Source: Patescibacteria group bacterium | GTDB taxonomy: Bacteria > Patescibacteriota > UBA1384 > 2-12-FULL-50-11 | Assembly: GCA_038058635.1 (NCBI GenBank) | Contig: JBBUAP010000001.1 | Coordinates: forward strand, 13,606 to 77,605 | DNA: 64,000 bases | Direction: 5' to 3' | Shown: piece after piece, positions 8,276-52,112 of the stretch | Numbering within the stretch: the first letter of the stretch is position 1 | Layout of the letters: the number at the start of each line of letters is the position of its first letter | The notes under the pieces: model-generated | The model's input: only the letters and a program-made list of their open reading frames with translations | What the model was told of the DNA's origin: nothing | Database searches by the model: none | Made by a program: the position numbers and the translations under genes

Positions 8276-8290
8276 TCGCAGCAATTTACA

Positions 8291-8322: not shown

Positions 8323-8379
8323 TCCTGGATGTCGTGCCTGCGGCACTCGCTCTTCGCTGGCGTTCAGAGTGAGAACCTG

Positions 8380-8453
8380 CGGTCCCAGGGGGATTCGAAC
8401 CCCCGATCTTCAGAATGAGAATCTGATGTCCTAGGCCTCTAGACGATGGGACC
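8380..8453 (-). tRNA. tRNA-Glu (anticodon CUC)
   Basis: GGTCCCATCGTCTAGAGGCCTAGGACATCAGATTCTCATTCTGAAGATCGGGGGTTCGAATCCCCCTGGGACCG. The 7-bp acceptor is perfect. Anticodon loop TTCTCAT with U33 and A37. T-loop TTCGAAT. Confidence 0.85.
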
Positions 8454-8493
8454 AAAGTAAACTTGCTCTGATAGTTTAGCTCAAAAAGTCTTC

Positions 8494-8568
8494 TTAGTCG
8501 AGCAGTTCCCTGACTTTGGCGACGAGCTCCTTGGGGGTGACTTCGATTTAAAGAAAATATCCCTGAAC
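8494..8568 (-). pseudogene. decayed copy of the response-regulator gene 3' end
   Basis: About 80% identical to the 3' end of CDS 11277..11651. Minus-strand translation is VQGYFL*IEVTPKELVAKVRELLD*, with an internal stop, versus VQGYYLKTEITPKELVEKIEVLLTSS in the intact gene. Confidence 0.6.
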
Positions 8569-8590
8569 CTAATTTCAGCGACGTCAGGAA

Positions 8591-9280: not shown

Positions 9281-9343
9281 CGTTTAATTGAAATATATCA
9301 TTTATAAGAACAGGGGGGCTATTCGCCCCCCTAAGGTTTTCTA

Positions 9344-10255: not shown

Positions 10256-10257
10256 CT

Positions 10258-11136: not shown

Positions 11137-11212
11137 CTTAGCCTCCTGGAGAGTCTCTCCGTTTCGCTCCTACATTATGTGAAGCTACGTTAGTGTATTT
11201 ACTACACTATAT

Positions 11213-11246
11213 AAATGTATTATATACACTTACTACAGCTTGTCAA
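11213..11246 (-). promoter_or_regulatory. consensus sigma-70 promoter for the GC-rich three-gene operon
   Basis: On the minus strand: TTGACA, 16-nt spacer, TATAAT. It sits in an AT-rich 140-nt spacer, about 80 nt upstream of the ATG at 11136. Confidence 0.55.
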
Positions 11247-11276
11247 TACCCTTTCTTTAGTAAATATCCCGTAAAT

Positions 11277-11651
11277 TTAGCTGGACGTTAGCAACACTTC
11301 AATTTTCTCAACGAGCTCTTTGGGGGTGATTTCGGTTTTTAGATAGTATCCCTGAACACGATTCTTGGCTTGCTCTTTATAGTCCGGGTTGGGTAGAGCG
11401 GTGAGAATGATAATCGGGATATGTTTGGTCTCCGGCAAGGTCCGGAAAACTTTGAGAGCCCCCAGCCCACCTTGGCGAGGAAGCATCAAGTCTAGCAAAA
11501 TGATATCGGGGTTATTGTTCAAGGCGACATCAATAGCCGATAAGCCGTCCCCCGCCTCAATAACCGTAAAGTTATGATGAGTGAAGGCCTCCTTATAGAG
11601 CCAGCGCAGTTCCTCGTTATCCTCGACTAACAATATCTTTTTTTGGCTCAT
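11277..11651 (-). CDS. single-domain response regulator (CheY-like receiver)
   Basis: ILLVEDNEELRWLY...DIILLDLMLP...IPIIILTA. 124 aa with no output domain. Confidence 0.85.
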   Translation of the reverse strand: MSQKKILLVEDNEELRWLYKEAFTHHNFTVIEAGDGLSAIDVALNNNPDIILLDLMLPRQGGLGALKVFRTLPETKHIPIIILTALPNPDYKEQAKNRVQGYYLKTEITPKELVEKIEVLLTSS

Positions 11652-11660
11652 CTCAATTCA

Positions 11661-15770: not shown

Positions 15771-15780
15771 TACCTATTTG

Positions 15781-15851
15781 TTCCGGGACTTGGATTCGAA
15801 CCAAGGTTGCCAGGCTCAGAACCTGGAGGCCTACCACTAGCCGATCCCGGA
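15781..15851 (-). tRNA. tRNA-Gln (anticodon CUG)
   Basis: TCCGGGATCGGCTAGTGGTAGGCCTCCAGGTTCTGAGCCTGGCAACCTTGGTTCGAATCCAAGTCCCGGAA. Perfect acceptor. Anticodon loop TTCTGAG. Confidence 0.85.
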
Positions 15852-15854
15852 GTA

Positions 15855-16541
15855 TTAATCCTTCGAGAAAGATATTAATTCAATAAACTTCGCTACCTCC
15901 AACTTTCTTGCTAACCTCACATCTCGATGCCTGAACTGTGGATTGTAACCAAGTCTCAAAAGCGCATTGTAAACATCCTCAAGTAAACTATGGTTGTAGC
16001 TTGTGTATTTTATCACGCAAGTATGATTATTTGAATCAACACAGAGGTTTCCGTCACTCTCAAACATCCCCTTTAGACAACGGACTAGATGCAAATTACT
16101 TCTTTTTATCCACGCGGGTACCCGTAGCTCGTGTCGTATCTTAATACCGGTCGGAAAATCAAGCCTAGACGAAATATGTTTTTGGTATAGATATACATCA
16201 ACACATTTGGAGTCCTTCCGGATCCGGATTGTAGGCTTCTTCTTAAAGATTTCCTCGGTTAACTTCGCTAACCGCCCAATTCTCTTCTGCTCCTTGGAAT
16301 TGAAGCATAGCGTTAGTTTCTCTGTTCTTGGGTATCGCTCGACACAGCCATCCCCTAGAAGTACGCCATAGAATTCGGCAGAATCAGGGCTGCGTTCTAG
16401 TTGTGCATAATATACTGGGTGAGCTACCTCCCATTTTCGAAAATTGCTTTGCATCCTACCCGACATAGTGAGCGACATTTTCATCAGGCTGGGATGATTA
16501 TCTTTAGTGAGACCCTTATTCCAAGGAGTTCTACCTTTCAT
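15855..16541 (-). CDS. LAGLIDADG-family homing endonuclease (double-motif, freestanding)
   Basis: Two LAGLIDADG-type motifs, FYGVLLGDGCV and CLKGMFESDGNL. N-terminal GRTPWNKG. AT-rich relative to its neighbours. It ends 3 nt before tRNA-Gln. Confidence 0.7.
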   Translation of the reverse strand: MKGRTPWNKGLTKDNHPSLMKMSLTMSGRMQSNFRKWEVAHPVYYAQLERSPDSAEFYGVLLGDGCVERYPRTEKLTLCFNSKEQKRIGRLAKLTEEIFKKKPTIRIRKDSKCVDVYLYQKHISSRLDFPTGIKIRHELRVPAWIKRSNLHLVRCLKGMFESDGNLCVDSNNHTCVIKYTSYNHSLLEDVYNALLRLGYNPQFRHRDVRLARKLEVAKFIELISFSKD

Positions 16542-19783: not shown

Positions 19784-20554
19784 TTATCCAGCTCTCTCAA
19801 GTCCCGTACCCAATTTCCAAAGTGCCTCGAACTGCTGCCGGTAGGACTCGGCAATATGGCGGTTCTCAATAATAACAATAGAGGTATTATCTGGATCCAT
19901 TACTTCAAGTGCAACTTTGTGGCCGTAGATGACAATCGCCACTGGACCAATGTATTCCCCAGGAAGCTCTCGTATCGTTAATAATGGCTGGGCTTGAAAC
20001 TGACGGCTAAAATCCTGACCAGCAAAGGCAATCATCCGAAGTGAGATATTTCGCTTTGCAAAAGTTTTGGCTGCTTTTTCGTATAAAGGCCAGATTCCAT
20101 CAAGTCGCTCGAATATTTCTCCCTGGCCTCCTAGAATCAGGTACTCGTTGTCTTTCTTCAAGGTATCCAACAGATCGTTAATCAATACCCCAAACCCTTC
20201 CGCACCCTCAATAACACGAACCACGTGCGGTTGCCGCTGGTGCATGCCCTTGAGAATTGGTTGTAGTGCTTCAGCTACATAAACTTTGTCCCGAACCTCC
20301 TTTATCAACAGATCTGTATCGGTTACAGAAAAATACAAGCGCTTGTGCTTTTCGTACTTTCTTACCAGCGCGGCCTCCTCCAAGCGCTTAAGCGCTCGGT
20401 AGGCTTGCTCTCGGTGAAGCTTAACGTGCTCTAGCATCATCCCCACCGACGCCTCTCCCTGACGCAATATTTCAACATAAAGAGCAGCCTCGTGTGAGGA
20501 CAGCCCTATTTCTTCAAGTTGTTTCGTCACGTTATTGTGATTCATTTCCGCCAT
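19784..20554 (-). CDS. TrmB-family transcriptional regulator
   Basis: N-terminal TrmB-type wHTH (LSSHEAALYVEILRQGEASVGMMLEHVKLHREQAYRALKRLEEAALV) plus a C-terminal effector-like domain. Confidence 0.55.
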   Translation of the reverse strand: MAEMNHNNVTKQLEEIGLSSHEAALYVEILRQGEASVGMMLEHVKLHREQAYRALKRLEEAALVRKYEKHKRLYFSVTDTDLLIKEVRDKVYVAEALQPILKGMHQRQPHVVRVIEGAEGFGVLINDLLDTLKKDNEYLILGGQGEIFERLDGIWPLYEKAAKTFAKRNISLRMIAFAGQDFSRQFQAQPLLTIRELPGEYIGPVAIVIYGHKVALEVMDPDNTSIVIIENRHIAESYRQQFEALWKLGTGLERAG

Positions 20555-31413: not shown

Positions 31414-32047
31414 TAGTTGACTGATATTTCTTTCTGCTGACTAGATTCCAAATCTTTTCGAGCAGTCTCTGTAAAGGACGATCAAGAGCAACTAATAATC
31501 CAAACCCGATCACTCCGATCAGCCAGCCACCTAGAATATCGCCAACGAAATGAAAACCGATAGCCACTCTGGCGATGCTCGATAAAACAGTTGCGACTAG
31601 AAAGATCCAGGCCCAGGTTTTTTGGCGGTAGTAAAACAGGGCGCAAGTCACAAATAGTAAGACCGCGGCGTGGTCAGATGGGAAAGCTTTTTGGGGTTGC
31701 TCCAGTAATAGCTCCTTGATGCCAGCAAAGGCAAACGGCCGATCACGAAAACCAAATTGAGTGTAAAAGAACTCACCGGCCAGCTTACTCATCACTTGCC
31801 AGGTAAAAATCGCCCCGATAAATATCTTCACCGCCACCCAACGGCTGGTTTTTTGCCAGACCAACCAAACTAAAGCGATTGGCAGTAAAAAGATCGGGTA
31901 TGAGGCAAAGATATAAGCTATCTTTTGAAGAGCGAGATTGTCTCTGGTAAAGCGGTACATTTCCTCCGTCAGATTTTGATCAACCACGATTAGTGACATA
32001 TCTGCTAAAGTATATCCGATGAAGCCAACTTGCCCAAGCAATGTCAC
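31394..32047 (-). CDS. PAP2-family phosphatase (undecaprenyl-diphosphatase-like)
   Basis: PAP2 motifs PSDHA and ARVAIGFHFVGD (SRxxxxxHxxxD-like). Membrane protein. Confidence 0.7.
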   Translation of the reverse strand: MTLLGQVGFIGYTLADMSLIVVDQNLTEEMYRFTRDNLALQKIAYIFASYPIFLLPIALVWLVWQKTSRWVAVKIFIGAIFTWQVMSKLAGEFFYTQFGFRDRPFAFAGIKELLLEQPQKAFPSDHAAVLLFVTCALFYYRQKTWAWIFLVATVLSSIARVAIGFHFVGDILGGWLIGVIGFGLLVALDRPLQRLLEKIWNLVSRKKYQSTNAPETS

Positions 32048-32085
32048 TCACAAGCTCGTTCGTCTTACTCACCAGCGTTCGTAAG

Positions 32086-33024
32086 ATGACAATCAGTCGA
32101 GCTGTTAAAGACTACCTTCGATTTCTAGCCACCGCCCGTGGCGCTTCAGCGCACACCGTTAAAAACTATCGCCACTACTTAGCTAGTTTCCAGAGCTGGG
32201 CCGAGTCGAACAGGGTGGAACATATCGAGAAGCTGACTGGCGAAGAAATCATCGACTACCAACTGGTTTTGCTTGACCCGGGCGGAGTTAAACGGAGCCG
32301 AGCGACTGTCAACTACTATTTAATCGCCCTACGATCGTTACTCAAATACTTGATTGGCCGCGATCTGGTAGTCTTACCGCCAGAAAAGGTAACTTTAAGT
32401 AAGGTGCCGGGGCGACAGGTTCACTTTTTGTCGCCAGAGGAGATGGGGGAGATGATCTCGTCAGAACCGCTTGAAAATATGTCCGACTACCGCGACCGAG
32501 CCATCATCTCTGTTTTATTTTCGACTGGCCTGCGAATTAGCGAGCTATTAGCTCTGAAGCGCAACCAAATTAATCTAGCCACCGGCGAATTTTCCGTTCG
32601 CGGTAAGGGCGGCAAAGTTCGACCGGTGTTTCTTTCTGAAAGTGCCCTTGACGCTCTCGGTGAGTATATCGATCAGCGCGCCGACACCAATCCGTTTGTC
32701 TTTGTCAGGCACCACAAAAAAAGTGCGCTCGATTCAACGAAGCTGCCGCTTTCCGGTCGAACTGTTCAGCGCTCTATTCGCGACATCGCCGCTCGAGCCG
32801 GCATTACCAAGCCAATCAGCCCCCATAAAATCCGCCATTCATTCGCCACCGATTTACTTCGCAACGGAGCCGATCTGCGCTCGGTCCAGGCCTTGCTTGG
32901 CCACTCGTCAATCACCACCACCCAAATTTATACTCATGTCACCGACAAAAGCCTGAAAGACATCCATCAGCGCTTCCACTCACCGAAAGCGAACTTGCCT
33001 CTTGATAGCGAGCAACATTCCTGA
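32086..33024 (+). CDS. tyrosine recombinase XerC/XerD family
   Basis: Core-binding domain plus catalytic LFSTGLRISEL...HKIRHSFATDLLRNGADLRSVQALLGHSSITTTQIYTHV (R..HxxR..Y). Start at MTISR inside ORF 32041..33024. Confidence 0.8.
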   Translation: MTISRAVKDYLRFLATARGASAHTVKNYRHYLASFQSWAESNRVEHIEKLTGEEIIDYQLVLLDPGGVKRSRATVNYYLIALRSLLKYLIGRDLVVLPPEKVTLSKVPGRQVHFLSPEEMGEMISSEPLENMSDYRDRAIISVLFSTGLRISELLALKRNQINLATGEFSVRGKGGKVRPVFLSESALDALGEYIDQRADTNPFVFVRHHKKSALDSTKLPLSGRTVQRSIRDIAARAGITKPISPHKIRHSFATDLLRNGADLRSVQALLGHSSITTTQIYTHVTDKSLKDIHQRFHSPKANLPLDSEQHS

Positions 33025-34818: not shown

Positions 34819-37800
34819 TCAGGGTACGATCTCGTACACTTTGGGGAGGGTGCCGGAGACGGAGGTGACGAGGTAACCGCGCTTGACCCCGCCGTAGTAG
34901 CCGACGACTTTGTAAGTATCGGTGGCGCCGAGGGCTTGGGCAGCGTTCAACACAAAGAGCAAGTCTTCGGCATCTGGTAATGTTGGCAGGTAGCGGGTGG
35001 CATCTGACTTACACTGGTAAAGATTGTTAAGTAACTCTGGGTCACCGTTGGCATCTTTTTTAATGTCACTTTTAGCACAGTAGCTATACCAGCCAGCTGT
35101 GGTACCCGTACTACCGCCCCGACTGCTGGCGATGGCATTTCCGACACCGACGCTGGTGGCCAAAATCGCTCCCCCTTTGTCGGTCGCGTTATTAATAGCC
35201 GTGTAGGCAACCAGGCCGGCGGATTTATCGCCATAATTCGTTGTCGCTCGACCGTAAAGCGTAGTGGCAGTACAGCCAAAGCTGAGGAGTTTGTCACAGC
35301 GGTACGGGCGGTAGCCGTCTTGATCCCAACGGCCATTAACACCAGCCCCTGACAGAGTCGGGACAGACATAATTAAACTGGCTAGAGGCGTACTTCCCTG
35401 GCTTTTAAATCTGGCACCTAAATCGCTTAAAATTGCCGTTCGGCCCCAACTCCAACCGTTATAAGGATTAGGATCGTTCGAATCAATTTGACTATTATTA
35501 CGACCCATACCACCCAACTGAGATAGTAATGGCTTTGAAGAGCAGACCGTACCAGCAGAACCATTGACTTGGCCAAGATAAGTACATACCTTGTTAGTGC
35601 CCCGATCGCTGCCCTGGAACTTCAGGGATTTATCAACGCCGCTAGGCCAGCCGGTAGCGTTGTCCTCGATGGTTTTAGTTAGAGAGACGGCGGTCGGATC
35701 GTTAGCGGCAAAGTTGTCGATAATATAGAAGCTGTTGTCGATATTATTTCCGCTATCGGGCCGGCCGAGCATTTTGGCACCGATCGAACTACCGTAGTCA
35801 GCGCTGGAAATGTCGGTTTTTTGTTTGCCTCCAAAGTAGACCAGTTTGGTTAATCCGCCGGATTTGTAGGCGACGAGTGAGCCACCAAATAGATTAGGGA
35901 TGTCGCTGGCCGAGTTGGGCGAGACATACTGGGGCGTCCAAGCGGCGTTACCAAAAGTCGGATTTGCTCCAGCGTTATCTTGTTTCCAGAGCGAGCCGTA
36001 CTGACCGAATGTCCCACCAACCATAAATAACTTACTGGCATTCTGAATGACTCTTGCCCCTGCAGTAAATATACTAGCCACCGCTCCGGCTCGTCGAGGT
36101 GAGGGGCGGTAAAGAAGGGTAGGATTTTTAGCGGAGAGGCGAATCTTCCAGGCCCCATTACCAACAACATCTTTGACCCACTCTGGAGCGTTGGTGGAAT
36201 CGTAATAATTCATTTGATGATCGGTGATAGTAACGAGACGATCGGTTCCACCAGCATTGGCAATTTGACTCGAGCTATAGCCGAACGGATGGGGAGAAGC
36301 GATCAGTTTGTCAAAGTAAATATTGAAAGTATTGTTTACAAAAGTTCGTCTTGTAACGATAAAGGTATAGGCGTTGACCGGGAAAGTCCCGGGTGGGTTA
36401 CCAGTATTAAGCCAAATCATCACCATCGCCCCGACACCCGGAACCCGACCAAGATTTGGCACGTTTTGGAGCGAGACATGATCAGAATAACCCTTGAAGG
36501 TACCTCCAATAGTCGTAGTTGTGTCAAACGACGGGGTCATAGTGACTTTGACGTTCTTTGAATCACCAGAAAGGCCGGAATCCCCTGGATAGTCCGGGTT
36601 ATGCCTCAGGCAGAGCTGTTTAGTTTCGTAGACTACACCACATGGCGAATTAGTAAACATGTCCTCAACAATGCCATGAAAAGTTTCGCGACTACCATCA
36701 CTTGTTCGTCGCTCTAGCGTTGCCCAGGCTCCAACAACAACTTTATCGGCATCATTGGGATCAATTTCCATTCGCCATTTCTTACTGTCGTCCCAGATTT
36801 TGTAAGTAATATTATTACGATCGGTGTAATCCTTATCTTTGACTGCCCCAAGGTTCACACCGCCACCTGTAATATTGCTAGTAGCAACTTGATAAGTGTA
36901 ATTCGACCGAATAACCTGAAAGTTGTAAACGCTACTAGTGGTAAAGTTGGGGTCGATTGTATTGTCCGTTGGCTGGGGCAACCAGGCGGCGCTAAGGGGC
37001 CCGGGATTAGTAGCCTTGTTCTTAAACTCTACATTCCACAAATCAGCGAAGCGTAGATTGTAGTTGATGTTTTTAGCGGCGCCTTCCCAGTATGAGGCCT
37101 TGGTTGGCGCTAGCGGTTGGAGAGCAAGGGTGGCACCGTAACGAGGCGAGGGGAAGGCGATAGCCGAATCGCTGGCAGCGATAGCACTGCCTTGATCTTG
37201 TACCACAAAGTCAGCAACGGCACTTTTGGTCTCATCGGAGACAAAATAGGCCTTACCATAAATATCGATATAGTTTATAAAGCCGGACAGGGTGTTGGTC
37301 AGACTAGTTGCGTCGTACTGCTCCAAGACAACCGAGTCTCCAACAGCGTAGCCGGTCGAGTCGCCACTCGAATCTAGTTGGCAAAAATAATGGCCAGCAT
37401 CTATGCCACCAACGCAGGTGTTGGTGGTGATCTGTCGCTTGACCACTTGGATCGCTAGAGACTTCATCGTAATCGATCCTTCAGAACCGTTATAACCGTA
37501 GACCATGAGTTCAACCATGTTGTTATTGTTGTAAACATTTTTTACTTTGCCCCAGGCGTAAAATTTACTGTCATCGGCTTTATTGCCGTACAGATAGACT
37601 TCATCGCCTTTGGCAAGCCCTGCGACGGCAGGATTAAGATAAATGAGCGAAGAAGCAGTACCATCAACCACAAGATCTTGGGATTCACCAGGTTTATTTT
37701 TTACTATCCAATTCCATCGCTCTAAGCCAGAGCGATCAGCCAGTGTTGAGGTAACACGAACGGTATAGCGTAGCCCACTCTGAATTTTCTTTGTTACGTC

Positions 37801-39981
37801 AATGGTTGAAGCATAGTCAATCTTTTCCCATGTATTAACCGCTGGACTCGCAGGATTTAGATCGAAGGCATAAACATCGTTGGTCACTCGCTTAGCAATC
37901 CTTAAACCCGGTCTGTTAGTGTAGAGACAGGTTGATTGGTTAGTCTCGCAGTTAATGTTGTTTGGTGCTAGCATTACTGCCTGGTGATAATAGCCGCCGA
38001 TCATCACTAAACGCTGGTTAACTGAATCGTATACCATCGAAGCGCCAGCGCGCTTACCAGGATTTGTATTACTTGGGGCCTTAAAAGTCCAAGCGAGATT
38101 CTGATCAGCCACTTCCGGATCGTAGATCCATAATTGATCGGATTCCGAGGCGTAGCCGCCATCGTAGTCGTTCATATTCACAGCCCCGCCGTAGTAAGCT
38201 ATTTTCGGGCCATTTTGTTCAAAATAAGTATAAGCCATCTCCCGGATTGGCAATGGGCTCTGGCGGAGTTTGTCAACGGTGAAATTAGTGAAGGATGTAC
38301 CGCTGCCGAAATTAACATTCGTCACTTTACCCCAAACCGGCTTATTGGGCGCTTTCGTCAAGCTAACTAAGTCGCCGACAGCCGGACAGATGGTCGCACA
38401 ATCGTGTCCGTTGGCGGGAGTAATGACAGTACCATTACTACCAATGCTGACCGAATCTATTGAATTAGCTGTTGAGAACTGCGGCGGCGCAAGCACAACG
38501 ATCGTGTCAACATCCGCCCCGGTTACCCAACCACCCGAAGCTTTATGTGGCGTATTATAATAGTTACCACTGAGATCATCACCACTACCCAACTTGAAGT
38601 CAACGCTAATCGCATCGACACCGTTACTGGTTGTGATTGGACCGATTTTTGTGAACTCTGCACTGTACAGTCGTCCCTGGTCTTGACCTCGGTACTTAGT
38701 TTCTAGTGACAGTGGTTGCTGATTTTTGTCAAGCAACAGCAAGGTAATCGATTGATTGAGACGCAATCCCTCAAGTGAGCCATAAACAAAACCACTAATG
38801 GTAGCACTGTTACTTCCGCCGGAAAATGTTTGGTTGTTGTCGGCCAATTTAATAAACGAAAAAGATTTTGCTCCCTTAACGATCGCCGTTCTCCAGCCTG
38901 AATCGGCGCTCGTCATCACTGGCTGGCTTTTCTTCGCCCAAGCTAGCGTGGCGTTTTCGGCATCATCAGTTTTGTACGGTGTTGAAAGATCGTCAGCCTC
39001 CGGGGTGTCGTTCCAGAGAGAGGGCTGAAGCCATTTCAGTTTGTAGTCGGTCGAGTTAACGAATAGGTCGCCAAAGCCGTATTGATAAAGTTGCGCATCA
39101 GATATTGAGGCGTCAATCCAGACCTTGAAATTGTTTTCTTTAATCGTTTTTTCAAATTTCTCTCGTAAATCTGTCGCTGTAATCCTATCGAACTTCGAAC
39201 CTGGAATAGTTGGAGGAAGCCCTGTGTCACTCCAGCGCGGCAAATAAGGAATATAGACAAAATCGACATTCTTGTAAAACGAGCTTACCCCGTCGGTGTC
39301 TTTTCTGGTTAAGAACTGATCTTGTGGTCCGCCGAGCTTAACCGTCCAATAATTCAGATCTTTTTGTTTGGCGCCAACTGGGGCGAAGGGATTGTAGAAG
39401 TGTCCCATATTGGTCAGCTGGGAAACGGTTTTGGCTTTGTCGGTGTCCGGAAGGGCGCCGTTACCAGGAATAATCCCCAGCGGGGTGTCGTTGACGATAT
39501 TGGCGTAGTTAAAAATCATCGCTGGGTTGGCGTCGTTGGTCTGGTTTTGTAAATACTGGCCGTCATTGGTCCATGGCAGTAAGACGATGACGCCGTTACA
39601 CCGTGGCAGAGAGGTGGAAATCTTTTGGTAAGTGGAGACGATTTTGCGCGGGCTGGGGCGAAAGGGAGTTGAGATCGGGGTCGTTTCTTCATTTTTATCA
39701 AGATCGAAAACCGTCCCGGTCGTCGCCGGCGGCGTGCCAGCGGCCAGTTTTTCTTTGAGCTTGACCAAAGCCGAGTCAGCGGCAGATTTGGCGACAGTGG
39801 CGTTAGCAATTTTGTCGGTCGAGGCCAGTTGGTCAAACCTAACCGCAATCGACGCCAAAGTCGTCGTCGTCAAAATGGCGATAATCATTACAGTCAAAAG
39901 CAACGCTGAAGCTGGACGGTTACTTTGATTAAACATCGTCGCCTCCCTCGATTCGTCCTTGATTCTCACATTGCTGCGCAA
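34819..39981 (-). CDS. giant (1720 aa) membrane-anchored surface protein, last gene of the pilus-like operon
   Basis: N-terminal signal anchor ASALLLTVMIIAILTTTTLASIAV followed by about 1650 aa of Gly/Asn/Thr/Ser-rich beta-type sequence. No catalytic motif. Co-directional with, and 78 nt downstream of, the pilin-like genes. Confidence 0.55.
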   Translation of the reverse strand: MRSNVRIKDESREATMFNQSNRPASALLLTVMIIAILTTTTLASIAVRFDQLASTDKIANATVAKSAADSALVKLKEKLAAGTPPATTGTVFDLDKNEETTPISTPFRPSPRKIVSTYQKISTSLPRCNGVIVLLPWTNDGQYLQNQTNDANPAMIFNYANIVNDTPLGIIPGNGALPDTDKAKTVSQLTNMGHFYNPFAPVGAKQKDLNYWTVKLGGPQDQFLTRKDTDGVSSFYKNVDFVYIPYLPRWSDTGLPPTIPGSKFDRITATDLREKFEKTIKENNFKVWIDASISDAQLYQYGFGDLFVNSTDYKLKWLQPSLWNDTPEADDLSTPYKTDDAENATLAWAKKSQPVMTSADSGWRTAIVKGAKSFSFIKLADNNQTFSGGSNSATISGFVYGSLEGLRLNQSITLLLLDKNQQPLSLETKYRGQDQGRLYSAEFTKIGPITTSNGVDAISVDFKLGSGDDLSGNYYNTPHKASGGWVTGADVDTIVVLAPPQFSTANSIDSVSIGSNGTVITPANGHDCATICPAVGDLVSLTKAPNKPVWGKVTNVNFGSGTSFTNFTVDKLRQSPLPIREMAYTYFEQNGPKIAYYGGAVNMNDYDGGYASESDQLWIYDPEVADQNLAWTFKAPSNTNPGKRAGASMVYDSVNQRLVMIGGYYHQAVMLAPNNINCETNQSTCLYTNRPGLRIAKRVTNDVYAFDLNPASPAVNTWEKIDYASTIDVTKKIQSGLRYTVRVTSTLADRSGLERWNWIVKNKPGESQDLVVDGTASSLIYLNPAVAGLAKGDEVYLYGNKADDSKFYAWGKVKNVYNNNNMVELMVYGYNGSEGSITMKSLAIQVVKRQITTNTCVGGIDAGHYFCQLDSSGDSTGYAVGDSVVLEQYDATSLTNTLSGFINYIDIYGKAYFVSDETKSAVADFVVQDQGSAIAASDSAIAFPSPRYGATLALQPLAPTKASYWEGAAKNINYNLRFADLWNVEFKNKATNPGPLSAAWLPQPTDNTIDPNFTTSSVYNFQVIRSNYTYQVATSNITGGGVNLGAVKDKDYTDRNNITYKIWDDSKKWRMEIDPNDADKVVVGAWATLERRTSDGSRETFHGIVEDMFTNSPCGVVYETKQLCLRHNPDYPGDSGLSGDSKNVKVTMTPSFDTTTTIGGTFKGYSDHVSLQNVPNLGRVPGVGAMVMIWLNTGNPPGTFPVNAYTFIVTRRTFVNNTFNIYFDKLIASPHPFGYSSSQIANAGGTDRLVTITDHQMNYYDSTNAPEWVKDVVGNGAWKIRLSAKNPTLLYRPSPRRAGAVASIFTAGARVIQNASKLFMVGGTFGQYGSLWKQDNAGANPTFGNAAWTPQYVSPNSASDIPNLFGGSLVAYKSGGLTKLVYFGGKQKTDISSADYGSSIGAKMLGRPDSGNNIDNSFYIIDNFAANDPTAVSLTKTIEDNATGWPSGVDKSLKFQGSDRGTNKVCTYLGQVNGSAGTVCSSKPLLSQLGGMGRNNSQIDSNDPNPYNGWSWGRTAILSDLGARFKSQGSTPLASLIMSVPTLSGAGVNGRWDQDGYRPYRCDKLLSFGCTATTLYGRATTNYGDKSAGLVAYTAINNATDKGGAILATSVGVGNAIASSRGGSTGTTAGWYSYCAKSDIKKDANGDPELLNNLYQCKSDATRYLPTLPDAEDLLFVLNAAQALGATDTYKVVGYYGGVKRGYLVTSVSGTLPKVYEIVP

Positions 39982-44564: not shown

Positions 44565-45770
44565 CTAGAATGATCCCGTTAAGCTGTAGATTGGTTGAAG
44601 AACAGATATAACAATAAACGCCACTGCTCCACCGAGGATGACGATGATAAAAGGCTCGATAAGAGCCGAGAAAGTGCGCAGTTTACCGTCGACTTCCTGC
44701 TCAAAATAATCCGCCAAGGTTGAGGCCGAGCCGCCCAAATCGCCTGACTGCTGACCAACAAAAAGTAACTGGGTCATCATCTTTGGGAAATATTTGTTAT
44801 CTTGCATCGTTGAAGTCACGGCCGCGCCTTGTTCGAGCGAGTGCATTAGTAATTTGAGCGTCCGGCGGAAGATTGTATTAGGGGTGGAGTCGGCGATGAT
44901 GCCAACGGCTTCCAGAATCGGCACGCCTGCCGCCAGCAATAGTGACAGCGTTCGATTGAAACGAGCCAGATAAACCTGGAGAGTCAGCGGTCCGAAGATC
45001 GGAAAATGTAATCCGAGATAGCTACTAACTTCCTTGCCTGGCTTGGTCATGGTGAAGAGTTTGATAATTACGACCAGCCCGATGACGATAGCAATCAACA
45101 GTACCCACTCGTTAATCAAAAAGTCGGTGATCGCTAGTAAAATCTTCGTCGAAACCGGCAATTCGGTTTCTTGGGAGCTGAAAATGTCTTTAATCGGCGG
45201 GATAACTTTGGTCAAGATAATTGCTCCGACGACAATCATCACCACGAAGATAAATGCCGGGTAAATCATCGCCCCACGAACCTTGCCGACGAACTCGGCC
45301 GCTCGAGCGGTGCTCGAGGCCAAATCGTCCAGAACCTTAACCATGTTACCCGTCGCTTCACCAGCTCGGACTACCCCAACCTCCACTTCGGGAAAGGTCT
45401 TGGGCTGACCAGCCATTGCCACCGACAGCGCAAAGCCGTTTTCCAGCGACTGGTGGATTTGACGCATCACTTTGCGGAGTCGCTTGTTCGGTGTCTCGGC
45501 GACTATATCAATTGCTTGAGTAATACCAACGCCAGCTTTCAACATTGTTGAAAGCTCCCGGTACATAATCGACCGGTCTTTGGCCGAAACTTTGCCGGCC
45601 GAGAACTTGCCTAAAACCGACCCCTCTTCAACGATCGAGATGACAGTGTAATTGCGGCTTTGAAGTAGCCGACGAACTGCCGCAAGCGTACCAGTCGCTC
45701 GGCCAGAGCGGATATGACCTTTTTCATCTTTGACTTTATACCGAAAAAAAGGCTTTGCTGTTTTCTTCAT
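44565..45770 (-). CDS. pilC: type IV pilus assembly platform protein PilC (GspF family)
   Basis: Two GspF-type repeats and three TM segments. Start at MKKTAK with GGAGGG immediately upstream, inside ORF 44565..45911. Confidence 0.8.
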   Translation of the reverse strand: MKKTAKPFFRYKVKDEKGHIRSGRATGTLAAVRRLLQSRNYTVISIVEEGSVLGKFSAGKVSAKDRSIMYRELSTMLKAGVGITQAIDIVAETPNKRLRKVMRQIHQSLENGFALSVAMAGQPKTFPEVEVGVVRAGEATGNMVKVLDDLASSTARAAEFVGKVRGAMIYPAFIFVVMIVVGAIILTKVIPPIKDIFSSQETELPVSTKILLAITDFLINEWVLLIAIVIGLVVIIKLFTMTKPGKEVSSYLGLHFPIFGPLTLQVYLARFNRTLSLLLAAGVPILEAVGIIADSTPNTIFRRTLKLLMHSLEQGAAVTSTMQDNKYFPKMMTQLLFVGQQSGDLGGSASTLADYFEQEVDGKLRTFSALIEPFIIVILGGAVAFIVISVLQPIYSLTGSF

Positions 45771-45824
45771 CCCTCCATAAAAAAGTGTAAAGCATTGAAG
45801 GGGAATTAGAAATACTAGAAAGAC

Positions 45825-45915
45825 ATACGGGCGCTTGAAATACATCGCTACGAGCGGGACTTGGAGTACCAAAAGCCCGTATCGATATATTTCAAGCGCC
45901 CGTATCGACATATAT
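45825..45915. promoter_or_regulatory. 18-bp perfect inverted repeat plus direct repeats in the pilC/PRC-barrel divergent intergenic region
   Basis: atacgggcgcttgaaata (45825..45842) and its reverse complement tatttcaagcgcccgtat (45888..45905). Also direct repeats gcccgtatcga(t/c)atat, two copies 23 nt apart. Confidence 0.45.
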
Positions 45916-45972: not shown

Positions 45973-46476
45973 ATGATCTTGGAGGTCTCGCAATTATTAA
46001 GTGCGGCGGTCCGTTCGGCTGATGGCAAGAAAATTGCTTCGGTTGATCGGGTGATTATTGACGGCCGCGACGCTCGTATCGCCGGATTTCAAACCAGTGC
46101 TCGGACGGTCTTAACGCGTTTTGGCCGAATTGATTACGTTGACACCCTGGCGGTGGAGAGGGGTGAAGTCGTGATTGATGGCGATAAGGTAATTCAGAAA
46201 GATTTGAAACCGTTTGATTTGTTGCGACGACAGTACGGCGTCGTTTTGGGCGTGACTGCTAAGACTGAATCGGGTCGCAAAATCGGTAAAGTTACTGACC
46301 TAGCGATTGATGCCGACACCGGGCTGATTGTCCGCTTTTACCTCGGCCAGTTCCTGAATGAGCGGATTATTCCTCGTCAATTTCTGGTTTCTATCACCCC
46401 TAAACAAGTTGTATTTAAGGATATCGTCATCGCTCCGACTTTCGACCAGATTGCCGTTAGCCAGTCCGCCGCCTAG
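45973..46476 (+). CDS. PRC-barrel domain protein
   Basis: Two PRC-barrel-like segments (VDRVIIDGRDARIAGFQ and GKVTDLAIDADTGLIVRFYL). Confidence 0.45.
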   Translation: MILEVSQLLSAAVRSADGKKIASVDRVIIDGRDARIAGFQTSARTVLTRFGRIDYVDTLAVERGEVVIDGDKVIQKDLKPFDLLRRQYGVVLGVTAKTESGRKIGKVTDLAIDADTGLIVRFYLGQFLNERIIPRQFLVSITPKQVVFKDIVIAPTFDQIAVSQSAA

Positions 46477-47356: not shown

Positions 47357-47623
47357 CTAGCTGTCTTCGCCGGTTCGGAAGCCGATGCTCTTTTTCTCGT
47401 CGGTGTCGGTGCCAATGACTTTTGTCATCACTTCCAACAAGGCCTTGGCGTGTTCCAGCGACATCCCGATTCGGGCCACCACTTGTTGCTTCTGGTGACT
47501 GCCAAGACTCTGGGCAATCTCTAGATTAATCCCAAACGGCGTTCTGTTCACTAAAACTGAATCGGTGTAGAGAACGGGGGTAGCATTACTCATCATGATT
47601 TCTGGTTTTTGTTCTTCTGTCAT
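47357..47623 (-). CDS. small hypothetical protein (DUF3467-like)
   Basis: 88 aa. PFGINLEIAQSLG...ARIGMSLEHAKAL resembles DUF3467-type small proteins (from memory). Confidence 0.35.
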   Translation of the reverse strand: MTEEQKPEIMMSNATPVLYTDSVLVNRTPFGINLEIAQSLGSHQKQQVVARIGMSLEHAKALLEVMTKVIGTDTDEKKSIGFRTGEDS

Positions 47624-47693
47624 TTATCTCCTTTCGTCTGTTTGACAATGCAATTAATTTGATACGGCCAGTATACCACTCGGAGTGTCCGCG

Positions 47694-47709
47694 CCGTTTT
47701 CTTTTGGCG
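47694..47709 (+). repeat. 16-nt motif CCGTTTTCTTTTGGCG, copy 1
   Basis: Perfect 16-mer. Four copies within 1.5 kb, all in the same orientation. Confidence 0.8.
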
Positions 47710-47771
47710 AAATTATCACATTAAAAAATGCCCGCCGAAAGTTCGGGGGCAAGTAAACAAGGCGTAAGACC

Positions 47772-48188
47772 TTAACGCATGCTGACGATCGGGTTACCGA
47801 GGTGATTCTGTGAGTAGGCAGGTAATCCAAACAAAGTCTCAGGCTGCCAGAGCTCATAAGGACGAAGTCCCATTGCTGCTTCAAGCGCAACGGGGACGCA
47901 ACGCGCAGACGGAGGGATTCCCCATTTTGCCTCAAGAGTTGCCAAAGACAAAGTCCCGTCTCCGTGATCTACGATGCGCCAACTACCCGAGGGAAGTGTT
48001 AGCCGGAGAGCAGCGTCTTGCGTAAGGTAGTAAGTCCTCACACTTCTTTTCATCAGACCGAAATTACCCTCGTGACCCAAATCAGAACGCTTGGCTTTGA
48101 ACCTGGTGGTAGTGCCATCGTCATGAACTACGTAAGTTGAGCCCCGAGCTGTTTGAAATCCACACTCAGACTTTTCTGGTTCGCTCAC
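47772..48188 (-). CDS. hypothetical protein
   Basis: 138-aa ORF with no recognisable motif. Preceded by the 16-nt motif. Confidence 0.35.
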   Translation of the reverse strand: MSEPEKSECGFQTARGSTYVVHDDGTTTRFKAKRSDLGHEGNFGLMKRSVRTYYLTQDAALRLTLPSGSWRIVDHGDGTLSLATLEAKWGIPPSARCVPVALEAAMGLRPYELWQPETLFGLPAYSQNHLGNPIVSMR

Positions 48189-48278
48189 TTTCTATGTGCA
48201 CCTCCTAAAGATGTGAGTTGATTATACAGAATCTGAAGCGACTAATCAATGACTCCTCTTGCCTATAGCAAGGTAAAA

Positions 48279-48294
48279 CCGTTTTCTTTTGGCG
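48279..48294 (+). repeat. 16-nt motif CCGTTTTCTTTTGGCG, copy 2 (followed by GGGAAAT)
   Basis: Perfect 16-mer in a divergent intergenic region. Confidence 0.8.
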
Positions 48295-48379
48295 GGGAAA
48301 TGCTTCTGTTGTCTTGAATCTTTCACGCCGATCTCTTATAATACTGCCAACGTTGCATCAGCAGATATTGGAGGAAAAC

Positions 48380-48715
48380 ATGCTAGCAATTCTGATCGTT
48401 CTAGGATTCGTCTGCGCTATTGGAAGCTTGTTGCTCTTTGCACATTTAGCGTCATATCCCGAGCCCCGCGGCCCCAAACCAAAGGGCCTCACCATGTTCT
48501 TTCTCGGGATGGCCGCACTCACCTTCTTCACGGCCGCCCTGCTTGTTTCAGCCATCGGGAGCAGCTCACAAAAGCCAGCATTCCAAGACGGTTCCCCCAA
48601 TCGGGTGGAGCCGTTTTCTTTTGGCGGGGAAATTAGTCGCCTAGGATTTTGTGGTAAAACTCGTACTTGGCACGGTGGTAATCTCGGTAAGGCTTCCCGT
48701 CATATTTCAGCTTGA
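48380..48715 (+). CDS. small two-TM membrane protein (hypothetical)
   Basis: SD GGAGG 6 nt upstream of the ATG. Two hydrophobic helices. The 3' end overlaps the convergent gene and motif copy 3. Confidence 0.3.
   Translation: MLAILIVLGFVCAIGSLLLFAHLASYPEPRGPKPKGLTMFFLGMAALTFFTAALLVSAIGSSSQKPAFQDGSPNRVEPFSFGGEISRLGFCGKTRTWHGGNLGKASRHISA
48611..48626 (+). repeat. 16-nt motif CCGTTTTCTTTTGGCG, copy 3 (followed by GGGAAAT)
   Basis: Perfect 16-mer at the convergent junction of the 48380..48715 and 48633..49139 genes. Confidence 0.8.
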
Positions 48716-49139
48716 TCGCTTCGAATTCCTTGGTGATCTTTTGGTCGCTAGTCATTATCTCCGTCACCTTTAACTGACGTGCCATACTCTCGTCTACTTC
48801 CGACAGATAGAACTCCACCTCAAACCCTTCTCGCTTAAATAGCCATTCGTAGAAATTTTTACCAACATGTGACGGCTCGCCGTATAAACCCTTGAGAGCT
48901 GGCAGTAGCTTGGGATGATCTGACTGTGGTGCCAAGGTGTAGACATCTATATCGTTCTGACCGGCAATCTTGGCCGCCGCTGAACCAATCATCACAATAT
49001 TGGCAACCGGTAAAACTCGGTGAACTTCGTCAATAATCTGCTGGCCGATTTCGGTTGTCTTTGGATCGTATGACTGAATCTTAACGATCTTGTTGGCTGG
49101 AAAGTGAAGTAAAAACTTTTCTTCGTTATCGGTTAGCAT
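48633..49139 (-). CDS. GrpB-like nucleotidyltransferase-fold protein
   Basis: IVMIGSAAAKIAGQNDIDVYTLAP (compare GrpB hIGStavpGlaAKPiIDI). 168 aa. Confidence 0.45.
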   Translation of the reverse strand: MLTDNEEKFLLHFPANKIVKIQSYDPKTTEIGQQIIDEVHRVLPVANIVMIGSAAAKIAGQNDIDVYTLAPQSDHPKLLPALKGLYGEPSHVGKNFYEWLFKREGFEVEFYLSEVDESMARQLKVTEIMTSDQKITKEFEAIKLKYDGKPYRDYHRAKYEFYHKILGD

Positions 49140-49165
49140 ACTGGCAGTTTAGCAAAAACTCCGAG

Positions 49166-49181
49166 CCGTTTTCTTTTGGCG
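49166..49181 (+). repeat. 16-nt motif CCGTTTTCTTTTGGCG, copy 4
   Basis: Perfect 16-mer, 27 nt upstream of the minus-strand start at 49139. Confidence 0.8.
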
Positions 49182-49197
49182 TACAATTCGCCTCTTA

Positions 49198-50094
49198 CTA
49201 TCTAAGACCGTGACACCGCTTGTACTTCTCAGGCTGGCCGTTCGCCCTTTTCTTAGTCATACACGGACATGGGTCGTTTACAGATACGTTAATGAGGTTA
49301 AGTGACTTCGACAAATAGTAGTAAGGATCTGTAAGACTCTTGAGATTCACGTCTGCAATTTCCCTTAGGGTGTTGGAGTATATCTCCATATTCACCAAGA
49401 TCTTTCTCAGTGACTTCTCTTCATCAGCACGGAGTCTAATCAATCGGGAGGTACAAATAATATCCTTCTCAGTAAGTCCCTTACGTGTAGGGAAAGAGGT
49501 GATTTTTTTCTTGCCCGATAGCACTACGTAGTCATTGTTATCAAATTTAAGCGTCTGATTCGATAGATCAGACACGTAAACAACTTTATACCCGTGCTTA
49601 ACATTATTGTTACCAATTAGTACCGACGTAGACCCGTCATAGAGTGCGCCTAGCATCATCAGGTTTTTCTGTGCTGCCGCCACCCCTAGCGCTGAGCGCT
49701 TTTTGAGCTTACTGAGGTCTACCTTATAAACCTTAGCCACCCTTTCTTCAGAGATACCCTTGCCACATTCCTCATAAAACTCTTTCGTGTGAGAGGTGCT
49801 GGATTCTAGATAACTCATCCACCTACTTGACTCAGCTAGCACAAAAACAAGGTGTAGTTGGTCGCACAACTCAAACCATAGATTAAAGATTTTGTTTAGC
49901 GCATTGATTTGTAACTTCCTTTCTTCGGCGTTTTGGTACAAATCGAACATATAGGCTGCGATGTCGAGTTGGGATCTGTAGTTATAGTCAGTTATCGACT
50001 CGTAGATAATTCGGAGGTAACGGTTCGAGTTGTGCTTTCTCAACTCACACTGTTCTTGCTTTGTTAGAGATTTGTATTCGATAGGATCGTTCAT
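49198..50094 (-). CDS. hypothetical protein with a C-terminal SEC-C-like metal-binding motif, AT-rich
   Basis: C-terminal NDPCPCMTKKRANGQPEKYKRCHG resembles the SEC-C motif. About 42% GC, against more than 50% for its neighbours. Confidence 0.4.
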   Translation of the reverse strand: MNDPIEYKSLTKQEQCELRKHNSNRYLRIIYESITDYNYRSQLDIAAYMFDLYQNAEERKLQINALNKIFNLWFELCDQLHLVFVLAESSRWMSYLESSTSHTKEFYEECGKGISEERVAKVYKVDLSKLKKRSALGVAAAQKNLMMLGALYDGSTSVLIGNNNVKHGYKVVYVSDLSNQTLKFDNNDYVVLSGKKKITSFPTRKGLTEKDIICTSRLIRLRADEEKSLRKILVNMEIYSNTLREIADVNLKSLTDPYYYLSKSLNLINVSVNDPCPCMTKKRANGQPEKYKRCHGLR

Positions 50095-50161: not shown

Positions 50162-52082
<1,921 letters not shown>

Positions 52083-52112
52083 TGAACCTCCTTTGGAATT
52101 TTTACTCATTTT

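Follow-up and report, generated by a model that had tools for sequence, protein, structure and literature searches.

The 16-nt motif CCGTTTTCTTTTGGCG is probably (at a rough probability of 0.6) the core of a directional recombination site of ~30 bp that marks cassette junctions at one hypervariable locus in a groundwater clade of Patescibacteria. The site is present at essentially every cassette boundary of the array locus. Comparison of genomes shows that cassettes are gained, lost and re-ordered among species and also among strains that are nearly identical, and that the homology breaks lie at the site or within it. All of the evidence for recombination is comparative. The array is best read as working like an integron or an att-accretion array while belonging to neither family. 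The motif appears in no paper of the literature searched, and no description of cassette arrays in Patescibacteria was found there.

The motif and the cassettes of the window

The window, which is the whole stretch of DNA analysed and is 64 kb in length, contains four exact copies of CCGTTTTCTTTTGGCG on the + strand. These are located at 47694–47709 (copy 1), 48279–48294 (copy 2), 48611–48626 (copy 3) and 49166–49181 (copy 4). The chance expectation for the motif in a window of this size is 0.06, and four copies were reached in 0 of 100 shuffles. No further copy with three or fewer mismatches is present anywhere in the window, and a profile search of the same 64 kb finds no site beyond these four. 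The site consensus is ~30 nt long and is made up of cGGAG, the invariant core CCGTTTTCTTTTGGCG and GGAAAATT, in that order. The profile matches the four copies at 47689–47717, 48272–48301, 48604–48634 and 49161–49189, respectively. The left flank is of the GGTAAAA type in copy 2 and of the GGAG type in copy 3, and these two copies share a longer identity that extends to GGCGGGGAAAT. The same sequence is found in independent ENA and Logan assemblies and is therefore not an assembly artefact. Among the matches listed for the bare 16-mer in the genome collection, chance single matches dominate.

The array is flanked by an 88-aa gene (47357–47623, − strand) that has a weak Pfam match to DUF3467 and a motif copy on one side only. 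Copy 1 lies between the promoter side of this gene and the terminator of the 138-aa gene in cassette 1 (47710–48278, − strand). The 138-aa gene (47772–48188) has its own promoter at 48221–48249 and a terminator, identified by eye, near 47725–47752. It has no match in Pfam, NCBIfam or PADLOC and no homolog among the other sampled arrays. Copy 2 lies between the divergent promoters of the 138-aa and 111-aa genes, which read TTGATT-17-TATAAT (48249–48221, − strand) and TTGAAT-17-TATAAT (48314–48342, + strand). Cassette 2 (48295–48610, + strand) carries the 111-aa gene (48380–48715 as called), a predicted small membrane protein. Its reading frame continues 89 nt past copy 3 and overlaps the convergent 168-aa gene; the last ~30 codons come from the motif and the neighbouring cassette. 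Copy 3 is within the 3' part of this frame, 7 nt from the stop codon of the 168-aa gene, and forms the left boundary of cassette 3 (48627–49165, − strand). The 168-aa gene (48633–49139) is GrpB-like (Pfam GrpB, E 4e-7) and has a candidate extended −10 element, TGcTAAACT, read by eye. Copy 4 forms the right boundary of this cassette, 26 nt upstream of the gene start on the opposite strand.

Between copy 4 and groEL is an AT-rich 298-aa gene (49198–50094, − strand), which lies in a kilobase with 42.8% GC, adjoins a motif copy on one side only and has no counterpart in the other arrays. Its junction with groEL is the end point of three Logan contigs. A relationship of this gene to TrmB-like proteins was considered and rejected, as there is no similarity. 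The cassette genes of the window have no match in NCBIfam or PADLOC, and their Pfam matches, to DUF3467 and GrpB, are weak. A search of the window against Rfam returns two tRNAs only, with nothing credible over the array even at a permissive E-value. Within-strain cassette polymorphism in this array was also rejected, all contigs with the 88-, 168- and 298-aa proteins being arranged identically.

The preliminary description of this DNA reported four identical 16-nt copies in one orientation, two of them with a longer shared extension, set among small genes of 88, 138, 111, 168 and 298 aa. It also placed one copy inside the 3' end of a reading frame at a convergent junction. The copies and gene layout are as described, the extended copies being copies 2 and 3 and the internal one copy 3. 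The view that the motif is not a fixed promoter element is congruent with its mapping relative to gene starts, from which it is separated by 26–90 nt in the window, and with genes in both orientations relative to the motif. The repeat is local rather than genome-wide, as had been expected, with 0 copies in ~92 kb of flanks from four genomes.

Related arrays and homology breaks at the motif

The variable locus is a single chromosomal interval that extends from the PRC-barrel and pilC genes to groEL. In the window, the PRC-barrel gene (45973–46476, + strand) is the conserved left anchor, with synteny in loci L138, L159, L225, L227, L229 and L233, and pilC (T2SSF; 44565–45911, − strand) lies beyond it. 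The conserved right anchor is groEL-groES (50162–52109, − strand), with synteny in L125, L062, L202, L217, L225, L227 and L233. Neither end of the arrays has a conserved platform gene. Syntenic arrays with three to 11 co-oriented copies are present in related Patescibacteria MAGs (L125/L159, L062, L138, L225, L227, L228 and L229). The largest, L225, has 11 copies in a single orientation. In L225, L227 and L138, no motif copy occurs outside the groEL-to-PRC interval. The orientation of the site is constant relative to the flanking core genes, and cassette genes are found on both strands. Homologous cassettes keep their orientation relative to the motif in every case. The typical spacing from copy to copy is 510–720 nt, with intervals of 189–3899 nt, and some copies are followed by the next at 160–190 nt with no gene between. 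A CRISPR array, which would have repeats of 23–50 nt, spacers of about 30–40 nt and a leader or cas genes, was rejected as an identity for the locus; the 189–3899-nt intervals hold promoter-bearing genes, and there is no cas gene in the Pfam lists.

The genes between copies differ largely among syntenic arrays. The cargo includes Phd and Doc toxin-antitoxin pairs, GNAT and GrpB proteins, TrmB-like regulators, small membrane proteins and unknowns. Arrays that were located by way of their GrpB protein, and not through the motif, contain 22 copies, of which 12 are exact and the others differ by one to four changes. The GGAG and GGAAAATT flanks are conserved alongside these 22 copies. Cassette interiors diverge by ~20% while the core stays identical. 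The GrpB homologs of other organisms (34–43% identity), which serve as a negative control, have no such site. The L233 GrpB-like gene, which has 72% nucleotide identity to that of L227, lies beside groEL without flanking sites; the motif of this locus has decayed, and no substitute junction repeat was found there.

The GrpB-like cassette has the clearest boundaries. From motif to motif, 571 nt of the window (48611–49181) align with L200 (2029–2597) at 79% identity. The flanks are unrelated, and the homology begins exactly at copy 3 and stops exactly at copy 4. This unit is found with its flanking sites in at least three other neighbourhoods at 79–83% identity: the window is 79% identical to L200 and L227, and L227 is 83% identical to L225, motif to motif, with the unit differing in its rank in the array. 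One cassette is common to L139 and L202, where its neighbourhoods differ, and L138 differs from L139 by one cassette plus one motif copy. Between L227 and L228, identity is 99.7% across 6079 nt and is lost inside a motif copy; between L227 and L229, it is 98.5% across 8706 nt and is lost immediately after GGAGCC. In the array zones, copies contain 40% of the homology-block ends, compared with 3% for random positions, and 50% lie within 10 nt of a copy, compared with 5%; many of the arrays are related, and these breakpoint counts are therefore not independent events, and BLAST blocks tend to stop in any short conserved island with unrelated flanks.

Proposed mechanism and known gene-capture systems

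In the proposed mechanism, the site itself would be the place of recombination, and each cassette would supply the sequence that flanks the core on both sides. A sequence-specific enzyme encoded elsewhere in the genome would join and separate cassettes at the core. The analogy is with integron cassettes, or with the tandem accretion of integrase-less elements at an att core. A broader proposal, possible at somewhat short of even odds, is a gene-capture system of Patescibacteria that has not been described before. In this system, a trans-encoded recombinase would act on a directional ~30-bp site with an invariant core of 16 bp, and one-gene cassettes with their own promoters would thereby be stacked, excised and shuffled at a fixed chromosomal locus. 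The core is also that of a ~290-nt element. The genomes of Patescibacteria are tiny, with few recognised mobile elements, and the acquisition and exchange of accessory genes in this group are poorly understood. If true, the proposal would describe an integron-like evolvability device with a different site architecture. A dedicated recombinase, if it exists, would recognise a short asymmetric site and may be of biotechnological interest.

The sole recombinase seen in the window is an Xer-like tyrosine recombinase (32041–33024, + strand), the called 312-aa product of which matches PF02899 and PF00589. It is encoded 15 kb from the array and is a candidate for the trans-acting enzyme. No integrase is present in the Pfam lists within ±10 kb of the array, and tblastn finds no such recombinase near any other motif locus. 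The inverted binding arms of tyrosine or serine recombinases were not found in the site. No circular cassette contig, excised circle or empty site was seen in the contigs examined. A phage or plasmid origin was also considered: 0 viral contigs match the flanked motif, and there are no plasmid or phage BLAST matches. One viral contig matches a looser motif pattern, which looks like chance.

The array resembles sedentary chromosomal integrons and CALINs, which are attC clusters without an integrase, in several respects. In both, co-oriented short sites at one chromosomal locus separate cassettes of one or two genes, with a typical spacing of 0.5–0.7 kb and turnover of content between close strains. 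The cargo is likewise rich in toxin-antitoxin pairs, acetyltransferases and small unknowns, and both sides of the shared core are carried by each cassette. Integrons and CALINs are recognised by at least two co-oriented sites between short cassettes, and here the window has four and L225 up to 11. There is no IntI nearby, which is required for an integron but not for a CALIN. The sites themselves are not congruent with attC, which is an imperfect palindrome of 57–141 bp with RYYYAAC and GTTRRRY boxes that pair when the strand folds, whereas the site here is a conserved, non-palindromic 16–30-mer. Its core reads GTTTTCT, not GTTRRRY, and has no inverse copy upstream, as judged by inspection and folding. 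Integron cassettes are mostly promoterless and co-directional, whereas those described here are on both strands and have their own sigma-70-like promoters. The host phylum, Patescibacteria, is a further difference.

The second group of systems consists of CIME/ICE accretion and islands at tRNA genes. Here too, an identical core of 15–25 bp is directly repeated at junctions, integrase-less elements can be moved in trans, and the lambda-type core is also T-rich and asymmetric. The array differs in having units of 0.2–1 kb with one gene, up to 11 in a row. It also differs in that no integrase-bearing partner is seen and the target is not a tRNA or gene end.

Alternative explanations

Unlikely, though the most probable of the alternatives, is an explanation without a dedicated recombinase. 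The site would be kept for another purpose, for example as a terminator, an insulator or a protein-binding site and, because it is the sole sequence common to otherwise unrelated cassettes, would act as a short homology patch for RecA-dependent or homology-facilitated illegitimate exchange after natural transformation. Natural competence is known in Saccharibacteria, which take DNA into their genomes by homologous recombination (PMC10633639). The arrays adjoin type IV pilus genes, between the strongly conserved groEL and PRC/pilC anchors, and no recombinase is encoded in cis. Homology-driven exchange would likewise break at a shared island. The minimal mobile elements of Neisseria provide a parallel, in which a naturally competent lineage has a hypervariable site flanked by conserved core genes, but these have no internal junction repeat and are exchanged through long flanking genes, whereas a junction repeat is present here. 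With 16–30 bp, the site barely reaches, or falls short of, the length that RecA usually needs for efficient exchange. Exchange at a homology patch also does not account for the retention of a non-palindromic 16-mer with GGAG and GGAAAATT at hairpin-less boundaries, for the single orientation of copies despite genes that run both ways, or for the acquisition of the site on both sides by new cassettes. If there is no recombinase, a short conserved terminator-like island would organise modular exchange in naturally competent bacteria. Either way, the site is a simple sequence tag with which the accessory-gene pool of the clade could be harvested from metagenomes.

A shared operator for a local regulon was one of two readings, next to a short dispersed repeat, that the preliminary description preferred to a fixed promoter element. 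Extended to a sequence-specific DNA-binding protein that occupies each junction and either silences the accessory genes or regulates them together, the operator explanation is improbable. The sharp conservation of 16 nt implies a sequence-specific binder, for which TrmB-like regulators are candidates. TrmB-like genes (PF01978) are present in or near most arrays (L125, L138, L205/L155, L201, L200, L139, L225, L227 and L228), and a distant TrmB-like paralog is encoded in the window (19784–20554). For many co-directional downstream genes, the −35 box is located 16–22 nt past the site. The site is, however, asymmetric and non-palindromic and has no fixed position relative to promoters; its distance to opposite-strand genes varies from 25 to 125 nt. 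Some copies are at convergent gene ends (copy 3) or precede the next copy by 160–190 nt with no gene in the interval. The sites of the window array are intact, yet this array contains no TrmB-like cassette. Co-conservation of the flanked genes, which the preliminary description had named as a check, is absent, and cassettes are replaced one by one between related genomes. Regulation alone also leaves the homology breaks at the site unexplained. A shared operator is not the best-supported role for the motif.

In a still less probable explanation, the motif is a dif-like Xer site and the cassettes are tiny modules that exploit Xer in tandem, in the manner of IMEX or pdif, with the Xer-like gene at 32041–33024 as the enzyme. 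Modules of the pdif type are small gene modules bounded by short Xer sites. The Xer modules of Acinetobacter plasmids (pdif) and of IMEX at dif thus resemble the cassettes described here, and they are served in trans by a housekeeping recombinase, as an Xer-like gene in the window, 15 kb away, might do. The presence of one locus per genome, direct repeats and no dedicated integrase is also as expected. The pdif site is 28 bp long, with two inverted arms and alternating orientation, and is found on plasmids, whereas the site here is direct, asymmetric and chromosomal. It does not have 11-bp inverted arms around a spacer of 6–8 bp. The sole dyad in the consensus of 22 copies is a 5-bp TTTTC/GAAAA pair, 9 bp apart (TTTTC-N9-GAAAA), and the site presumably bears no resemblance to the conserved XerD arm. 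A dif site is expected once per chromosome, at the replication terminus; the cumulative GC skew of the window has several small turning points, none of which can be assigned as a terminus, and gives no clear sign of one at the array. Chromosome dimer resolution would also be endangered by as many as 11 competent dif sites.

The motif has some features of intrinsic terminators. A GC-rich stem-loop, GGTTCCCCCaatcGGGTGGAGCC (48590–48612, + strand), with a fold energy of −17.0 kcal/mol, runs directly into GTTTTCTTTT of copy 3, and the two likely form an intrinsic terminator for the co-directional 111-aa gene. In other arrays the same hairpin arrangement, with compensating stem changes, is found only behind genes that are co-directional with the motif. 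Hairpins of −17 to −30 kcal/mol are located directly upstream of the site only where the upstream gene is co-directional. At copies 1, 2 and 4, where the upstream genes are on the opposite strand, the hairpins are weak (−5.6 to −7.5 kcal/mol; −7.4 kcal/mol upstream of copy 1). The predicted structures point to a secondary role for the site, in which the TTTTCTTTT tract and a cassette-specific hairpin ending in GGAGCC may act as an intrinsic terminator for genes in the motif direction. A consensus terminator scan of the window flags no motif copy.

That the copies are nothing other than ordinary intrinsic terminators, or a generic repeat of the REP/BIME type, with no role in gene turnover, is highly unlikely. 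Terminators and REP/BIME repeats share with many copies a GC-rich hairpin followed by a T-run behind co-directional genes, including the compensating stem changes. The Rfam match to ctRNA_p42d over copy 3 (E 0.81) is at chance level and far under the gathering score. In contrast to such repeats, the motif is confined to one locus, with no copy in the ~92 kb of flanks outside it, and also occurs without an adequate hairpin (copies 1, 2 and 4). The GGCG and GGAAAATT parts are conserved outside the structure, where they have no structural role, and the orientation is constant and independent of genes that run both ways. The other predicted terminators of the window have different T-tracts, and none contains the motif.

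An equally slight probability attaches to the 16-mer as a long target-site duplication, regenerated with every insertion by a target-specific transposase or a casposase-like integrase that makes 16-nt staggered cuts at one chromosomal target: the sharp 16-nt edge of identity with cassette-specific flanks fits, and tandem insertions at one target would yield such an array, but the cassettes have no terminal inverted repeats, transposase or Cas1 gene, neither of the conserved flanks, GGAG and GGAAAATT, is an inverted copy of the other, and the same 20-mer occurs inside an unrelated 290-nt element.

For this element, nothing credible is found in Rfam, even at a permissive E-value. Its left flank appears tRNA-like by eye, and a tRNA 3' end was considered as an att site and rejected, ARAGORN finding no tRNA. 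A coding function was likewise rejected, since it contains only short or overlapping reading frames and no consistent frame. The element is structured and ~290 nt long, is closed by the CCGTTTTCTTTTGGCG core and brackets restriction-modification islands in other Saccharibacteria. This suggests that one recognition sequence may serve two kinds of accessory-gene platform, the cassette array and the ~290-nt element.

Motif copies and neighboring genes in the window

In the window, the 16-mer CCGTTTTCTTTTGGCG is present in four perfect copies on the + strand (47694-47709, 48279-48294, 48611-48626 and 49166-49181; 0.06 expected by chance). A direct count and the gene calls confirm that the copies lie between small genes, as reported in the preliminary description. 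No further copy is present in the 64 kb with three or fewer mismatches or by profile search. In the ungapped alignment of the flanks, the 16-mer is a sharp edge of identity, and copies 2 and 3 have the right flank GGGAAAT in common. The copies set apart five small genes of 88 aa (47357-47623, - strand, weak DUF3467 match), 138 aa (47772-48188, -, no family match), 111 aa (48380-48715, +, small membrane protein), 168 aa (48633-49139, -, weak GrpB match) and 298 aa (49198-50094, -, AT-rich, no family match). This patch is flanked on the left by a PRC-barrel gene with pilC and on the right by groEL-groES. Independent assemblies of Hainich groundwater samples, from both ENA and Logan, contain the array sequence as well. 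The source contig is 423 kb long, and relatives of the source carry the submitter labels Saccharibacteria, Berkelbacteria or "Patescibacteria group".

The 298-aa protein has no Pfam, NCBIfam or PADLOC match and no homolog in other arrays; by eye, its C-terminus (...DPCPCMTKKRANGQPEKYKRCHGLR) is like a SEC-C-type zinc-binding tail. Three Logan contigs stop exactly where this gene meets groEL, a hint that strains differ at this point. The stretch 45825-45915 combines two overlapping repeats, an inverted one of 31 nt (90% complementary, 19 nt apart) and a tandem direct one of 23 nt. They cover the pilC start (45911), reach the first bases of the intergenic region that separates the divergent pilC and PRC-barrel genes, and could be an operator.

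Arrays at the same locus and their cassettes

When species-representative genomes are scanned for the bare 16-mer, most of the matches listed are single chance hits. The same scan contains L125, a Saccharibacteria MAG with four co-oriented copies, and L062, a second MAG with three. Both are syntenic with the window, with the array just past groEL, and their GroEL proteins are ~98% (L125) and ~92% (L062) identical to that of the window over most of the length. Their inter-copy genes are unrelated to those of the window, and the co-conservation of flanked genes raised in the preliminary description is not observed. A metagenome scan (motif plus N0-3 AAAT) yields 92 loci, ~12 of which are window-type arrays; several of these contain the PRC-barrel/pilC or groEL anchor.

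Arrays reached through homologs of the 168-aa GrpB-like protein, and thus not ascertained through the motif, give complete groEL-to-PRC intervals. These contain 11 (L225), 6 (L227), 8 (L228) and 6 (L229) copies, and only 2-3 decayed copies in L233. Within an array all copies point one way, and this direction relative to groEL and the PRC-barrel gene does not change between arrays. Outside the interval, no copy is present in ~92 kb of flanking DNA (window, L225, L227 and L138), which upholds the earlier view of a local repeat. The earlier view that the motif is not a fixed promoter also holds. The L233/L234 interval (7716-13430) retains the GrpB-like gene and another shared cassette. Its junction motif has decayed to 2-3 fragments, no substitute repeat is present in it, and it looks like a fossil array.

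The inter-copy units act as modules, and homologous segments always keep their orientation relative to the motif. From the first base of copy 3 through the final base of copy 4, the GrpB-like unit of the window is 79% identical to that of locus L200 (571 nt), and the sequences beyond these two points are unrelated. The L227 and L225 versions of this unit are 83% identical to each other from motif to motif. Its rank varies: L227 has it third from groEL, and in L225 it lies deep inside the array. The L233 version adjoins groEL and its sites are lost. Another complete cassette is common to loci L139 and L202, where its neighborhoods differ. L138 and L139 have the same left flank and Phd+Doc cassette and differ by exactly one 1-kb cassette and one motif copy. 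L227 matches L228 at 99.7% identity for 6079 nt, up to a point within a motif copy, and matches L229 at 98.5% for 8706 nt, up to ...GGAGCC. In the array zones of 15 loci, 40% of homology-block ends lie inside a copy (3% of random positions) and 50% lie within 10 nt of one (5% of random positions), counts that include non-independent events because several of the 15 arrays are related. The site is absent beside GrpB homologs of 34-43% identity in unrelated contexts, and the motif therefore goes with the locus rather than the gene. Judged from these alignments, the site is shown to mark cassette boundaries at which gene content turns over cassette by cassette, even among near-identical strains.

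The window cargo has no NCBIfam or PADLOC match and, except for the GrpB-like gene, no homolog in other arrays. Elsewhere the cargo includes Phd/YefM+Doc pairs within one unit, a GNAT acetyltransferase and DUF350. L227 has a weak match to an RNAP alpha-CTD-like protein between groEL and the first copy, and L125 has a methyltransferase and a SocA/Panacea antitoxin in the variable stretch from the last copy to groEL. Cassette genes are on either strand, and many cassettes contain good sigma-70-type promoters (by scan in the window, by eye elsewhere). TrmB-like winged-helix regulators are especially common. They are present in L125 (3388-4176), L138 (847-1596), L205, L155, L201 (two copies), L200, L139, L225 (4949-5692) and L227 (9434-10198 and 11250-12014). 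These proteins are ~250 aa long, with 28-36% identity across lineages and up to 92% among close relatives, and their stop codon is often just ~6 nt ahead of a motif copy. The only TrmB-family protein of the window (19784-20554) is a distant paralog (22% identity over the full length) beside a YcaO gene, 28 kb from the array.

Site structure and possible mechanisms

In the unbiased arrays, 12 of 22 non-redundant copies are exact and the remainder have 1-4 changes. The consensus of these 22 is cGGAG-CCGTTTTCTTTTGGCG-GGAAAATTa, and spacing is typically 510-720 nt (range 189-3899 nt). A second left-flank type, GGTAAA (seen in window copy 2, for example), differs from the GGAGCC type by a ~31-nt insert ahead of CCGTTTTC. 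A segment of ~95 nt directly after the motif (GGAAAATTTTGGGGTGTCACCATTGACAAC...), with a TTGACA box inside, is common to otherwise different cassettes (L062 6787-6881, L138 4226-4320, L135 31-124, L200 2616-2708, L202 85-179, L139 1018-1107 and L227/L228) and looks like a reused promoter/leader module.

Recombination probably occurs at the 16-bp core or within it. With ...cGGAG at the right end of each cassette and GGAAAATT... at the left, excision of a unit would rebuild one full site, as in integron cassettes and in att-core accretion of integrase-less elements. Because the asymmetric 16-mer is sharply and deeply conserved, its sequence implies recognition by a sequence-specific protein. Candidates are a trans-encoded recombinase, the Xer-like recombinase at 32041-33024 and the array-borne TrmB-like proteins. 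The main rival starts from natural transformation, a process documented for Saccharibacteria (PMC10633639): DNA would be exchanged by short homology, and the site would be kept for a regulatory or insulating role. No excised circle or empty site is found in the assemblies searched, and no within-strain polymorphism of the window array is found among ENA and Logan assemblies. The data fit either a site-specific recombinase or short-homology exchange and do not separate them.

The Xer-like tyrosine recombinase gene (32041-33024, +; Phage_int_SAM_1 and Phage_integrase) lies directly upstream of rpsF-ssb-rpsR. No other recombinase is seen in the window. The cumulative GC skew is lowest at ~33 kb.

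An operator of a local regulon, as proposed in the preliminary description, is not the best reading; gene content switches cassette-wise at the site.

When the upstream gene is co-directional with the motif, a GC-rich hairpin (-17 to -30 kcal/mol) with terminal GGAGCC is followed directly by GTTTTCTTTT. Hairpin stems vary in sequence between cassettes with complementarity retained. Upstream genes on the opposite strand go with a weak fold (mostly -4 to -8 kcal/mol, about -3 to -13 overall). In the window, such a hairpin is present at copy 3 (48590-48612, -17.0 kcal/mol) and not at copies 1, 2 and 4. Since hairpin and T-tract are combined only with a co-directional upstream gene, the T-tract is, from predicted folds, probably used as an intrinsic terminator for such genes. 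A plain terminator is unlikely: some copies have no hairpin, the motif always points the same way, GGCG and GGAAAATT stay conserved with no structural role, other gene ends all lack the motif, and the T-tracts of the other predicted terminators are different. The 111-aa ORF (48380-48715) crosses copy 3 into the antisense of the convergent GrpB-like gene (48633-49139; 83-nt overlap), and this tail is thus an accident of juxtaposition. If transcription ends at the copy 3 hairpin and T-tract, the message of the 111-aa gene would lack a stop codon, and the called C-terminus is uncertain.

By inspection and folding, the core departs from GTTRRRY, lacks an inverse core and falls outside any palindrome, and it is therefore not an attC site. 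The inverted arms of dif, lox or att cores are likewise missing, and the sole dyad is TTTTC-N9-GAAAA. No integron integrase or other recombinase is present within 10 kb of the window array, and none near any other array. The motif has no Rfam match, no occurrence with the GAG...G flank in IMG/VR, no BLAST match in plasmid and phage collections, and no paper containing it was found. The array works like an integron or att-accretion array but lacks defining features of integrons, Xer/dif sites, CRISPR and plain terminators.

A dispersed element and other features

A dispersed non-coding element of ~200-295 nt is present in other Saccharibacteria (~60 copies; reference copy L175 1693-1984, also L013, L084 and L126-L216). 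It ends in ...GCTCCAT CCGTTTTCTTTTGGCG AAATTCGGGGCGGACA, so the 16-mer and AAAT are common to the element and the arrays. The element has strong folding on both strands (z -7.7 and -6.0), no Rfam match and variants with an internal deletion, and the genes outside it vary from copy to copy. Inverted pairs with motif ends inward (L127, L131, L140, L162, L169, L186, L188, L192, L194, L196 and L213) enclose segments of 3-8 kb. The scanned segments carry restriction-modification genes, one with a Bsp6I-like endonuclease, a C5 methylase and an XRE C-protein, and another with a LexA/S24::N6_N4 methylase fusion and HNH.

In the 15780-16541 region of the window, tRNA-Gln (15780-15851) and a class I (Glu/Gln-type) aminoacyl-tRNA synthetase gene flank a free-standing 228-aa ORF that matches LAGLIDADG_3 weakly. 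The type IV pilus/pseudopilin gene block is headed by a 1720-aa ORF (34819-39981, -) for which no Pfam hit is recorded.
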